In this document: positions 7,787-45,845 of the stretch, one piece after another
Position numbering within the stretch: position 1 is the stretch's first letter
Layout of the letters: each line of letters begins with the position of its first letter
Source of the DNA: a virus
IMG/VR virus record: IMGVR_UViG_3300045988_172985
Coordinates: 1 to 57,492 of that record
Reading direction: 5' to 3' (one strand)
Length of the DNA: 57,492 nt
The notes under the pieces: generated by a model
What the model was told of the DNA's origin: nothing
The model's database searches: none
The model's input: only the letters and a program-made list of their open reading frames with translations
Made by a program: the position numbers and the translations under genes

Positions 7787-8035
7787 CTACGCTTTATATC
7801 TAAATAATTCTTTATATAGTTGTTCATCTTTTATTAATTTTTCTTCATTATCAAAAGCATTTAAATATTCCCAAATAATATCACATGTTCTCTCTTTTAA
7901 GTAACGCCTCGAATAGATATAGTATTTATATATTTGTTTTTCTTTAATGCTCGAATAATTAAAAAGCTTACTAACAAACTCTCGCTTGCTATAAAACTCA
8001 CGATATCCAAAAAATCTAAGTCTATCATCGAACAT
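7787..8035 (-). CDS. hypothetical protein in the usual small-terminase position (82 aa)
   Basis: The start was moved to ATG 8035 (GAGG RBS). The longer ORF-track version runs through a promoter, a terminator and the tRNA. Confidence 0.4.
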   Translation of the reverse strand: MFDDRLRFFGYREFYSKREFVSKLFNYSSIKEKQIYKYYIYSRRYLKERTCDIIWEYLNAFDNEEKLIKDEQLYKELFRYKA

Positions 8036-8063
8036 ATAATCAACCTCGTATTCTTCTAAAATC

Positions 8064-8092
8064 ATTTTAACATACGAGTGTTTGATTGTCAA
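8064..8092 (-). promoter_or_regulatory. sigma-A-type promoter of the packaging/head/tail operon
   Basis: -35 TTGACA (8092-8087), 17-nt spacer, -10 TAAAAT (8069-8064), read on the minus strand. Confidence 0.6.
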
Positions 8093-8093
8093 T

Positions 8094-8126
8094 ATAAAAA
8101 GAAAAATCGCACCTTGAGATGCGATT
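8094..8126 (-). terminator. intrinsic terminator closing the ncRNA/tRNA unit
   Basis: Minus-strand AATCGCA-loop-TGCGATT hairpin followed by TTTTTCTTTTT. Confidence 0.7.
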
Positions 8127-8145
8127 CTACTGAGGATTGTTTGTG

Positions 8146-8219
8146 TGGAGGTAGTAATAGGATTCGAACCTATGCTTGTGGTTTTGCAGACCACTGCCTT
8201 CCCGCTTGGCTATACTACC
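8146..8219 (-). tRNA. tRNA-Cys: tRNA-Cys (anticodon GCA), CCA encoded
   Basis: Hand-folded cloverleaf. Acceptor stem GGTAGTA/TACTACC. Anticodon arm GTGGT-CTGCAAA-ACCAC. T arm ATAGG-TTCGAAT-CCTAT. 3' end TCCA. Confidence 0.9.
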
Positions 8220-9052
8220 AAAAGGGGAAAACACCGTTTATTGAAAGGATTATTAAAAACTAAAAATGGAATTATTTATCATATTAGTATTAACGGTGTC
8301 TTCACTAGCAATTAAGTGAGTTTAGGAAAAATAAGAAAATATCAAAAACCTAAACTCTTATTTAGAAAGGGGCACTACTATCGTACTAGTTATTTGACAA
8401 TATTATATTACAGATGGTCCTCCCATTAATTCTTACTAGACATCTATTATTCGGTCACTGGGTAGTATTAGCCCAAAGCAAGTAGCGAACTATACTTCTC
8501 TAATACCATGTCAAAATCCCAAACCAGAATCCTTACTAGCAATTTTCACACACAGTTGGGTCACAATTTAATTCTGGAGCCAAATCGTGATAAATGCTCT
8601 GTTAATTGTTACTTTTTTACCATTTACTTCCTCGTGTGGTTTTGTGCGAAAATACCGAGTTCTAATCTTATAGGATATTGCTATCCATCAACCACACTAT
8701 TACTTATGGTATCTTATTTTTCCCTCACTCGTACCAATAGAGGTAGTACTAATAAGTTTTATCATTATCCTACGCTTGGACATGTTTTATAGTTGTAATC
8801 GATTAGGCTCGTACCTTATAGCATTCTAATAAGAACCACTATTTTCTCATTCCCTAGTTTCTAGGTCCCAGTACGGCATTTTACAATGCCGACAAACTCT
8901 ATCCTCCATAAGTCTGCACTAATAGATAAAAAGCATTGAGAAAATATCCTTACTATATTGTGTTATAGTCTTTCATAAGGTTCCTATATAATATTGTCAA
9001 ATAACTAGCACTAAGTAGCAATAATGCAATGCGGTAATCATATTCTTACCAC
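8220..9052 (-). ncRNA. large (~830 nt) highly structured noncoding RNA, co-transcribed with tRNA-Cys; ROOL/GOLLD-class candidate
   Basis: Has its own consensus promoter and no RBS-preceded ORF. Nested long-range helices: 8386-8408/8986-9008, 8442-8449/8920-8927, 8524-8530/8571-8577, 8634-8641/8690-8697, 8231-8238/8292-8299. Many local hairpins. Visibly less AT-rich than its flanks. Confidence 0.6.
8386..9008. repeat. perfect 23-bp inverted repeat arms (8386-8408 and 8986-9008) enclosing 577 bp
   Basis: CTAGTTATTTGACAATATTATAT at 8386-8408 is the exact reverse complement of 8986-9008. Confidence 0.9.
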
Positions 9053-9058
9053 AATTTA

Positions 9059-9087
9059 ATAATACCATATTATTTCATATTAGTCAA
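9059..9087 (-). promoter_or_regulatory. promoter of the large ncRNA / tRNA-Cys unit
   Basis: -35 TTGACT (9087-9082), 17-nt spacer ending TGG, -10 TATTAT (9064-9059). Confidence 0.7.
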
Positions 9088-9090
9088 GTG

Positions 9091-9924
9091 TTATTTCACC
9101 ACTTTTTCACCATTTTCATCAACACGCATCCAATGAAAACCACCACAACTAAGTTCCTCTGGTTTTTTAAGTGCTTCATAGAAAAAGTTCGCATTTCCAA
9201 AACCATTTTTCTTAATCCATTCTCTTGCTGCTTTTCCTGTTTCAAATATCTCTCCTGTCTCTAAGCATTTAACAGGAGAGCCGTTTACAATTTCTTTGGC
9301 ATCTTCATGTTTATCTACATCGTAAAGCATAAACCTATAACCTTTTGTTCTAATTCTACTAGCCTGACCTTTTAAAAAATCTCTAACTGTACCTCTCGAT
9401 AAACCTAAATCTTTTTCACATGCCGTAAAACTTTCATACAATACCCCCGTATCAACACACAAGATAGGGGTTTTTAACTTCGTACCACTGCTTTTCTGTT
9501 TATCCATTTTTTCAACTTGTTCTTTTTGAGCCATAAGTTTTTTCTCTAATAATTTCTCTCTTTCTGTTTTAATCTTACTCCTTTGACTGGGTCCTTTTAC
9601 ATATCCAACAAATTCAAATGTAAATTTAATTACTTCCCCAAGATACTCAATATCAACTGTATACTTTTTCGTAAACTCTAAATTTACATCTAATTGTTCT
9701 TTCTTACCAACATATACTTCATGTGCAAGTTTTCCAGTTTCAACCCCCGCCATATACTCATATATTATTTCACCCACTTGAATCATTGTGAGTGAAGTAT
9801 TGTTTATAATTAAAAATTTCTTATATTGCTTAATTTTTTCTGCTTCACCTTGACCATATAATTCAACAGCCCTCTCATGGATCTGTTTTAATTTCGCTTT
9901 CTGTACTTGTTCAATTGTTGTCAT
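9091..9924 (-). CDS. DNA-binding protein with two C-terminal NUMOD1-like repeats (277 aa)
   Basis: Repeats ILCVDTGVLYESFTACEKDLGLSRGTV..KGYRF and VKCLETGEIFETGKAAREWI..GFHW resemble the DNA-binding modules of homing-endonuclease-associated proteins. GGAGG RBS. Confidence 0.45.
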   Translation of the reverse strand: MTTIEQVQKAKLKQIHERAVELYGQGEAEKIKQYKKFLIINNTSLTMIQVGEIIYEYMAGVETGKLAHEVYVGKKEQLDVNLEFTKKYTVDIEYLGEVIKFTFEFVGYVKGPSQRSKIKTEREKLLEKKLMAQKEQVEKMDKQKSSGTKLKTPILCVDTGVLYESFTACEKDLGLSRGTVRDFLKGQASRIRTKGYRFMLYDVDKHEDAKEIVNGSPVKCLETGEIFETGKAAREWIKKNGFGNANFFYEALKKPEELSCGGFHWMRVDENGEKVVK

Positions 9925-45111: not shown

Positions 45112-45144
45112 TTTTGTCTCCTCCTTCGTATTCTATCTCACAAT

Positions 45145-45173
45145 ATTATAACATATTTAATTTTTTTTGTAAA
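45145..45173 (-). promoter_or_regulatory. promoter of the lysis cassette
   Basis: -35 TTTACA (45173-45168), 17-nt spacer ending TGT, -10 TATAAT (45150-45145). Confidence 0.55.
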
Positions 45174-45178
45174 AGTAC

Positions 45179-45207
45179 TTGACTAATAAAGTCGAATATG
45201 GTATTAT
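45179..45207 (+). promoter_or_regulatory. promoter of the modular ncRNA
   Basis: -35 TTGACT (45179-45184), 17-nt spacer ending TGG, -10 TATTAT (45202-45207). Confidence 0.7.
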
Positions 45208-45214
45208 TAAATTG

Positions 45215-45248
45215 TCAAGAGGAGCAAAAGACAACTCCTGCCTCTTGA
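45215..45248 (+). ncRNA. module 0: 5'-terminal stem-loop
   Basis: TCAAGAGG (45215-22) pairs with CCTCTTGA (45241-48). Inner pairing AGGAG/CTCCT. Confidence 0.5.
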
Positions 45249-45280
45249 TTCAAACTATATTATTCTTTTAAATAAGATAT

Positions 45281-45444
45281 CGTTACCTTTTATAGGTAGC
45301 GTAGGATAAATGAGAGAGGGAGCAAAAGTACAATGCCTAGTAGAACCCTATTAGGAGGATTTTGAAGCCGGACTAGAGAAATCTCAATAGCGGAATGGAA
45401 TCGAAATTCATTTATCCTACGGTACTTATGAGAGTAAGTATCGG
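45281..45444 (+). ncRNA. module 1
   Basis: Hairpin 45281-45301 (loop TTTAT). A 13-bp helix, 45301-45313 with 45408-45420. Hairpin 45421-45442 (loop TGAGAG). Confidence 0.6.
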
Positions 45445-45470
45445 ACTTAAAAATATTAATTTCGTAATAA

Positions 45471-45602
45471 TGCTACTTTTTATAGGTAGCATAGAGTAGA
45501 TAATTATTATAACCTGTTCTATGAGGTTGACTATATAAATCAATAGAACAATGGGAAAATATAGTCCTTGTCTATTCTATGGTACTTATGAGAGTAAGTA
45601 CC
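45471..45602 (+). ncRNA. module 2
   Basis: Hairpin 45472-45490 (loop TTTAT). A 14-bp helix, 45490-45503 with 45568-45581. Inner hairpins 45511-45528 and 45529-45566. Hairpin 45581-45602 (loop TGAGAG). Confidence 0.6.
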
Positions 45603-45628
45603 TTGTTGATTCACTTAACTTTAACTTA

Positions 45629-45778
45629 GACACCTTTATAGGTGTCGCCGAGATTATGGTTGTTTATAATTTTACAAGTAACTATAAATAAATGACTGTT
45701 TGATTTCTTTTAAATAAAAAATTCCTTGAAATTGTTGTTTGAAGTTACCATAGTCTCGGTGATGCTTATGAAAGCATC
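45629..45778 (+). ncRNA. module 3
   Basis: Hairpin 45629-45646 (loop TTAT). A 13-bp helix, 45647-45659 with 45748-45760. Hairpin 45761-45778 (loop ATGA). Confidence 0.6.
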
Positions 45779-45807
45779 GAATCGACTACTAAATACATCA
45801 TTCTATT

Positions 45808-45845
45808 TAAAAAATCAGGATTTAATTATCCTGATTTTATTTTAT
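45808..45845. terminator. bidirectional intrinsic terminator
   Basis: A 10-bp stem AAATCAGGAT-ttaatt-ATCCTGATTT, flanked by an A-run on the left and a T-run on the right. Confidence 0.7.

Follow-up and report, generated by a model that had tools for sequence, protein, structure and literature searches.

The DNA analyzed here, IMG/VR record IMGVR_UViG_3300045988_172985 (positions 1 to 57,492; hereafter the window), belongs to a human-gut phage. On its minus strand, upstream of a small open reading frame (ORF) and the terminase, portal, and capsid genes, lies a compact cassette in which a promoter is followed by a large structured RNA, a single transfer RNA for cysteine (tRNA-Cys), and a terminator. 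We document the family membership, conservation, and covariation of this RNA together with the anatomy of its cassette, and we consider it very likely that positions 8386-9008 of the minus strand encode a ROOL RNA (Rfam family RF03087) within a unit that is transcribed, processed, and assembled into a cage in the manner proposed below.

Anatomy of the cassette

All elements of the cassette lie on the minus strand. It opens, 3 nt past the stop of the gene upstream at 9091-9924, with a 29-nt sigma-70-type promoter-like site at 9087-9059 that combines TTGACT, a 17-nt interval, and TG-n-TATTAT (10 of 12 consensus matches plus the extended -10 TG). A leader of ~44 nt follows, extending from a hairpin at 9053-9030 (UGUGGUAA...UUACCGCA; -11.8 kcal/mol, folding z -2.3) on to position 9009; the hairpin coincides with or adjoins the predicted start of transcription and may act as a 5' stabilizer. 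The ROOL RNA occupies 9008-8386 (623 nt, closed by helix P1, with the Rfam match at 8393-9004) and is separated by a 166-nt spacer (8385-8220), composed of two hairpin domains (8390-8304 and 8303-8227; z -4.2), from tRNA-Cys(GCA) at 8219-8146. This 74-nt tRNA is recognized by ARAGORN and by the Rfam tRNA model (70.9 bits), and it carries discriminator U73 and an encoded CCA end. The cassette closes with a 35-nt intrinsic terminator (8128-8094; z -4.3) in which an 11-bp hairpin (8128-8103) precedes a U tract, and which contains the sole terminator-like hairpin on the minus strand between 7700 and 9400. Directly beyond it, at 8092-8064, lies a second promoter-like site (TTGACA, 17 nt, TG-n-TAAAAT), assigned to the operon of the small ORF and terminase. 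The original prediction for this locus, made from the letters of the window, had named the first promoter immediately after the upstream stop, the tRNA, and the terminator followed by another promoter, and each of these was found in place.

A scan of the minus strand revealed no internal terminator and no good internal promoter within the cassette, nor any separate promoter for the tRNA. From the presence of one promoter and one terminator past the tRNA, the lack of internal signals, and the recurrence of this layout in relatives, we infer that ROOL and tRNA-Cys are co-transcribed, as an RNA predicted to measure ~960 nt in all. In three relatives (L001, L002, and L143, introduced below), the promoter hexamers and their spacing, the leader hairpin, tRNA-Cys, the terminator, and the next promoter occur at matching places. 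The leader hairpin (z -3.1) and the terminator hairpin (followed by U9) of L001 differ in sequence from those of the window and occupy the same positions.

The region also lacks coding signals, as had been claimed: no minus-strand ORF exceeds 35 amino acids, and no ORF is preceded by a ribosome-binding site. Its six ORFs, considered on both strands, have no Pfam match and a single negligible match among PHROGs (E 0.04). These observations bear on the idea that the region is a cis-acting leader of the packaging operon or a decaying protein gene, the latter an alternative that the original prediction had itself raised. A leader would be expected to sit as this region does, directly upstream of the small-ORF/terminase operon and on the same strand, but the terminator and the independent, highly conserved promoter at 8092-8064 stand between the two. 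For a decaying gene, neither Pfam nor PHROGs supplies a match of significance. As the covariance-model match and the covariation described below already account for the conservation of the region, we give this alternative practically no credence.

Two features adjoining the cassette deserve mention in their own right. The promoter at 8092-8064 is near-invariant in all seven aligned sequences, exceeding the conservation of its surroundings. The 277-amino-acid gene upstream of the cassette (9091-9924) resembles, weakly and below threshold, a NUMOD-like domain, a DNA-binding domain of homing endonucleases, and also has a weak HNH match among PHROGs.

A full-length match to the ROOL family

A sensitive Rfam scan of positions 7900-9400 on both strands identified ROOL at 8393-9004 (minus strand) with a score of 137.7 bits, relative to a gathering score of 99.1 (E 4.6e-30). 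The match covers RF03087 from end to end (model positions 1-574 of 574). No match to GOLLD, OLE, HEARO, or raiA was detected in the same scan up to E = 10. The locus had been put forward as a candidate of the ROOL/GOLLD class, and the covariance models place it with ROOL and not with GOLLD. GOLLD, likewise an Rfam family, comprises large RNAs from phages and prophages and forms 14-mer cages. The RNA of the window resembles it in being a large, ornate RNA of a phage, encoded next to tRNAs, with a cage as its likely product; in sequence and fold the two are unrelated.

The structured RNA spans ~612-623 nt (the Rfam match at 8393-9004 and the P1-closed segment at 8386-9008), and the folding of its 623-nt core surpasses that of shuffled controls by a wide margin (z -7.0). 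Of the ~830-nt RNA originally envisaged, ROOL accounts for ~620 nt and the remainder is leader and non-conserved spacer. The claim that the region is less AT-rich than its flanks holds in direction, with an excess of G+C that is real but small (0.34-0.37 versus ~0.30 for the window).

Known ROOL RNAs are roughly 580-660 nt long and derive from phages and prophages; the family averages 581 nt, and the structurally characterized ROOL env-120 (PDB 9MDS) has 659 nt. In addition to the full-length model match, the window RNA shares with the published family (Weinberg et al. 2017, PMC5737381; env-120, PMC12286853) a long closing helix, a multi-junction fold, a covarying pseudoknot, an L8:J6/8 pair, GNRA and L18 loop motifs, a variable internal linker, and a phage setting next to a tRNA. 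It differs from typical members in being AT-rich (34% GC, with a composition bias of 37 bits in the Rfam output) and in being dropped by the Rfam fast filters. A further distinction is that its tRNA island consists of a single tRNA-Cys, held in a promoter-to-terminator cassette directly before the packaging operon.

Compensatory changes across a clade of related phages

A search with the large terminase yielded seven IMG/VR contigs, and a 32-mer from ROOL yielded three further contigs from metagenomes, of which one carries a human-gut label. Three relatives (L003, L141, and L142) are nearly identical to the window, at ~97-98% across the cassette. At 90% terminase identity, L001, L002, and L143 carry ROOLs that are ~75-78% identical to that of the window (150 bits for L001), and at ~65% terminase identity, L004-L007 carry ROOLs scoring 175-193 bits. 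Within the terminase clade, all eight phages encode ROOL (homologue scores of 150-193 bits in the seven related phages), and in every relative its position is immediately before the conserved small ORF and the terminase, on their strand.

Covariation was assessed in a seven-sequence MAFFT alignment with the structure taken from the model alignment; as controls, the 3' partners were slid by 1-3 columns, and 500 shuffles were performed. Standard pairs are formed in 75.9% of cells, compared with ~42% in slid controls, and pairs altered on both sides number 57, compared with 11-21. None of the 500 shuffles attained the observed values. The conservation and covariation among related phages that the original prediction had looked to are therefore strong.

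Between the window and its near-identical human-gut variants L003, L141, and L142, there are 13 substitution events at paired positions, all of which retain pairing; one is a double compensatory change from U-A to C-G at 8926/8905. Comparison with the L001 group gives 16 doubly compensated pairs, 8 in which a single change preserves pairing, 3 gained, and 11 broken, and places 71 substitutions in unpaired positions. Judged from these substitutions, the ROOL fold is maintained by compensatory changes in this clade.

Helices and candidate cage contacts

When the family model is laid onto the window, 131 of its 154 pairs are canonical. The closing helix P1, formed by 8986-9008 (5' arm) and 8386-8408 (3' arm), pairs at 23 of 23 positions by Watson-Crick rules; it is the top-ranked inverted repeat of the 57-kb window, where it reaches 26 nt with 96% complementarity, and 10 of its 16 model pairs are altered on both sides among relatives. 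P1 was one of six helices listed in the original prediction, all of which are perfect Watson-Crick pairings, and the three hairpins listed alongside them are likewise present and correspond to hairpins of the model: 8673-8686 (loop GCAA), 8853-8865 (GAAA), and 8874-8891 (GUAA). Perfect pairing did not always signify membership in the fold. The helices 8442-8449/8920-8927 (8/8) and 8524-8530/8571-8577 (7/7) fall outside the family model, and the 75%-identical relatives do not conserve them. We rejected both as chance complementarity in AU-rich sequence: they compete with model helices and are absent in L001.

The helix at 8690-8697/8634-8641 (8/8), in contrast to those two, is a genuine pseudoknot of ROOL. 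Its 5' strand, GUGUGGUU (8690-8697), pairs with AACCACAC (8634-8641), which borders the linker loop on its 5' side, and the pairing covaries, from UGUGG/CCACA in the window to UGCGG/CCGCA in L001 and UGUCG/CGACA in L005. By sequence context it matches env-120 pairs 349-352:406-409 and is outside the nested Rfam structure. The published R-scape table gives significant covariation for these env-120 pairs and for 307-309:333-335, the env-120 equivalent of the L8:J6/8 pair described below; the third published ROOL pseudoknot (env-120 458-461:578-581) could not be mapped confidently onto the window. The env-120 sequence that we copied from the supplementary PDF has 650 nt in place of 659, and because it is 9 nt short, published contacts were mapped by local sequence context and not by number.

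Equivalents of several contacts that join subunits in the env-120 cage were located in this way. The L8 loop (UUGGUA, 8732-8737) is complementary to the J6/8 segment (UACCA, 8707-8711), matching the kissing contact B4, in which G307-A310 of env-120 meet U332-C335 of another subunit (PMC12286853). This complementarity is retained in L001 and L004-L006 despite changes of sequence, and by analogy with env-120 the pairing would be intermolecular. Contact B2 of env-120 is an inter-subunit A-minor interaction (G62:A366; PMC12286853), for which the equivalent is the hairpin at 8673-8686 with its GNRA loop GCAA at 8678-8681; the stem covaries, and a GNRA loop is retained in all relatives. Contact B6 (G565:C566 in env-120; PMC12286853) finds its counterpart in the L18 hairpin (8481-8492), whose conserved UCGC loop contains the potentially self-pairing GC at 8485-8486. 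The loop of the stem 8642-8647/8548-8553 holds a variable linker (8555-8633), an insert of ~80 nt that does not align to the model and has diverged more between the window and L001 than any other part. We suggest, by comparison with the solved structure, that it is equivalent to the disordered linker inside the cage.

A lineage-specific spacer

The spacer at 8220-8385 is, as far as the alignments indicate, lineage-specific and not part of ROOL. Identity between the window and L001 is 47% in the spacer, relative to 78% in ROOL and 57% in the leader; the L001 spacer folds marginally (z -2.0), and in L003 and L142 a spacer helix bears one uncompensated G-to-A change. Two helices in this segment, 8231-8238/8292-8299 (8/8) and 8318-8326/8349-8357 (9/9), had been read as a 3' domain of the RNA. 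The helices exist and the segment is well folded (z -4.2), but they lie in the spacer, where the sequence is not conserved. The spacer was rejected as a conserved 3' domain: it cannot be aligned with that of the 75%-identical relatives, and L004 has a different segment of ~250 nt in its place, whose folding does not exceed that of shuffled sequence (z -1.2).

Two further observations concern the spacer. Those of L004 (5101-5355) and L006 (5142-5349) are conserved with each other, and the L004 spacer is richer in G+C and has no Rfam match. Although the spacers of the lineages are otherwise unrelated, each includes a hairpin whose stem has ~8-13 bp and whose U-rich loop has ~12-22 nt (8318-8357 in the window, ~3622-3668 in L001, 5284-5313 in L004); this hairpin may be a target for a nuclease or protein, or a mere effect of AT-rich composition.

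ROOL and tRNA genes in related phages

Among relatives, arrays of 8-19 tRNAs occur. In L004 and L006, the order is a promoter matching the consensus at 12 of 12 positions, a tRNA-Met ending 5-6 nt before ROOL, ROOL, a different spacer of ~210-255 nt, and tRNA-Cys, with further tRNAs upstream of ROOL (17 in L004 and 6 in L006). In L005 and L007, a tRNA abuts the 5' end of ROOL and none follows downstream. Because of these layouts in L004-L007, ROOL appears to sit within or at the edge of a tRNA island, which the sequences suggest has been reduced to one tRNA in the lineage of the window.

The proximity of the two RNAs invites the explanation that the cassette is a tRNA-Cys expression unit in which ROOL is mainly a long, stable 5' leader or processing scaffold with no independent role. 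The dependence of tRNA-Cys on an upstream promoter fits this explanation, as do the order of ROOL followed by tRNA-Cys in 9 of 11 related sequences examined and the abutment of ROOL on tRNA-Met in L004, L006, and L007. It is countered by the high-scoring ROOLs that L005 and L007 keep with no tRNA downstream, and by the fact that ROOL is 78% identical to its L001 homologue where the spacer linking it to the tRNA is 47% identical. Moreover, ROOLs from other sources can lack tRNAs and reach very high abundance by themselves (PMC5737381; PMC12286853). We regard a subordinate role of this kind as improbable and favor an RNA with a role of its own.

The tRNA itself shows an unusual pattern of divergence. 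Between the window and its closest relatives, identity falls to 82% in tRNA-Cys (13 substitutions and one indel) from 98-99% in the promoter, ROOL, spacer, and terminator. The changes are confined to a patch at 8163-8205 and affect the D-loop, anticodon stem, variable loop, and T-loop, leaving the anticodon loop unchanged. The anticodon stem reads GUGGU/ACCAC in the window against UGGCU/AGCCU in L003, L141, and L142, and the L001 group has a third allele, AAAGU/ACUUU. Since L003, L141, and L142 share one allele and the window alone differs, a single replacement of the patch in the window fits these sequences better than a recurrent substitution hotspot, an idea that we dropped because the three close relatives share their allele.

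Searches beyond the clade were largely unproductive. A relative at 40% terminase identity, found in a Flemingiibacterium metagenome-assembled genome (MAG), has no ROOL upstream of the terminase. Two terminase scans of bacterial genomes found no prophage with a ROOL of the window type, the matches being that Flemingiibacterium contig and one "Bacilli bacterium" MAG contig that ends at the terminase. A blastn comparison of the cassette with 50,697 deposited phage genomes returned one short tRNA-like match and no close homologue in a cultured phage. A degenerate 16-mer from the 5' region of ROOL hit 120 IMG/VR loci, almost all by chance, among which were two weak, partial ROOL-like matches. By terminase, no cultured phage is closer than Clostridium phage Maintenon, at 39% identity, a distance that leaves the host known only as a low-GC, gut Firmicute-like organism.

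Observations that weigh against a functional ROOL

Several of our results count against the assignment or against the function that we propose. The ROOL match is missing from the Rfam fast-filter (gathering) mode applied to the whole window, from gathering mode run on just 801 bases around the locus, and from a more permissive mode when run over all 57 kb. The assignment thus depends on the sensitive scan, with the homologues as support. We attribute the failure of the fast filters to the AT-rich character and composition bias of the match described above. Relatives behave alike: the ROOLs of L001 and L002 were missed in a 65-kb scan, and that of L001 (2946-3566) scores 150.1 bits when scanned alone. 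At the level of structure, 23 model pairs are non-canonical in the window. Complementarity for contact B1 amounts to 5 nt in a shifted register (ACACAA at 8958-8963 with UUGUG at 8562-8566) and includes one mismatch in L001. A peripheral hairpin, equivalent to env-120 528-543 and expected near 8509-8510, is deleted in the window and in L003, L141, and L142; it is not among the listed cage contacts. The presence of ROOL without a downstream tRNA in L005 and L007 further means that the link to tRNA-Cys is not obligatory.

The small hairpin missing near 8509-8510, a point of difference from env-120, is ~11-17 nt long where it is kept, in L001, L002, and L143, and is much longer in L004 and L006.

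Some of these features would also suit a ROOL that is an inert relic or hitch-hiking passenger, unused by the phage. The window has the lowest score of the clade (137.7 versus 150-193 bits), it has lost one peripheral hairpin, and its 23 non-canonical pairs could be read as decay. A relic would not be expected to match the model over its full length behind a dedicated, consensus-like promoter, nor to accumulate no pair-breaking substitution at paired sites among near-identical variants and 16 doubly compensated pairs relative to the L001 group. That all 8 members of the terminase clade carry it is equally at odds with a passenger. We find disuse very hard to credit, and a maintained ROOL is the reading that we carry forward.

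A model for expression and assembly

Much of the framework for this RNA is already in place. Cryo-EM of ROOL has revealed a protein-free octameric cage with D4 symmetry, ~28 nm across, with the variable linker disordered inside (PMC12286853), and the occurrence of ROOLs next to tRNAs in phages had already led to the suggestion of co-transcription (PMC5737381). Applying this framework to the window, we infer the following course of transcription, processing, and cage assembly. Host RNA polymerase would start at the promoter at 9087-9059 and produce a primary transcript of leader hairpin, ROOL, 166-nt spacer, tRNA-Cys, and terminator. As general tRNA biology would predict, cleavage by RNase P at 8219/8220 would free a functional tRNA-Cys along with a ROOL whose ends are clamped by the 23-bp P1. 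The RNA would adopt the flat, multi-junction architecture of its family and, like other ROOLs, self-assemble without protein into a D4 octameric cage of ~28 nm through three contacts: the kissing of L8 with J6/8, the A-minor interaction of the GNRA loop, and the GC pairing of L18. All of this would take place from a cassette directly upstream of a separately promoted packaging and structural operon. Because equivalents of several cage contacts were located in the sequence, we think that the processed ROOL of the window probably forms the octamer. Our best guess for the role of such a cage is one tied to the handling of tRNAs or translation during infection.

A bolder possibility is that the linkage of ROOL, spacer, and tRNA-Cys is itself functional, with the unprocessed precursor forming a cage that bears eight pre-tRNA-Cys on its outside. 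There is a precedent in engineered constructs: according to the summary in PMC12515178 of work by Ling et al. 2025, fusing a pre-tRNA to the 3' end of ROOL did not block assembly, and the cargo was displayed on the outside. In those constructs, as summarized there, a tRNA precursor likewise lies 3' of ROOL in one transcript, and the octamer formed with its cargo displayed radially; the arrangement in the window is natural and includes a 166-nt spacer. If the idea were correct, the pre-tRNA cage would be a natural counterpart of the engineered 3'-cargo constructs and could serve as a scaffold, protective store, or decoy for the phage tRNA, possibly as a defense against tRNA-targeting host nucleases or as a means of timing tRNA release. 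That tRNA-Cys is the only tRNA left beside ROOL in the lineage of the window, and that its allele was apparently replaced there, are both compatible with such a cage and do not demonstrate it. We consider this a long shot, and the processed ROOL remains the form that we expect to assemble.

A second folded segment in the window

Far from the cassette, positions 45112-45836 of the window form a 725-nt segment with few ORFs, located between a 66-amino-acid ORF and the gene for a small membrane protein next to an endolysin-like gene. Its minus strand folds strongly (z -5.8), the GC skew flips sign at 45200-45700, and a 27-nt inverted repeat joins 45287-45313 with 45408-45434. A module of ~123 nt (45478-45600), partly repeated, keeps 98% identity in relatives, compared with 72-87% for the flanking genes. 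Relatives have tRNA-like sequences on the opposite strand of the equivalent segment, and no tRNA or Rfam family was detected in that of the window. Possible explanations are a tRNA island in decay, a small mobile element, and an RNA of unknown type.

Significance for the ROOL family

The ROOL family, its association with phages and tRNAs, the idea of co-transcription, and the cage have all been published already; what is new here is one further well-documented ROOL. Neither its value as a test bed nor the gap in annotation that it exposes alters existing knowledge of the family. That gap arises because the match is lost in gathering mode and in long scans, so that the locus would stay blank under standard annotation. 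Given that an AT-rich ROOL scoring well above threshold is dropped by the standard Rfam filters, ROOLs are probably under-counted in low-GC phages. ROOL cages have been solved structurally, and the locus described here is a compact, natural, and clearly bounded unit of promoter, ROOL, tRNA, and terminator. Because it is bounded in this way and accompanied by graded relatives at 97%, 75%, and ~65% identity, it would be a convenient subject for end mapping, deletion, and assembly experiments.

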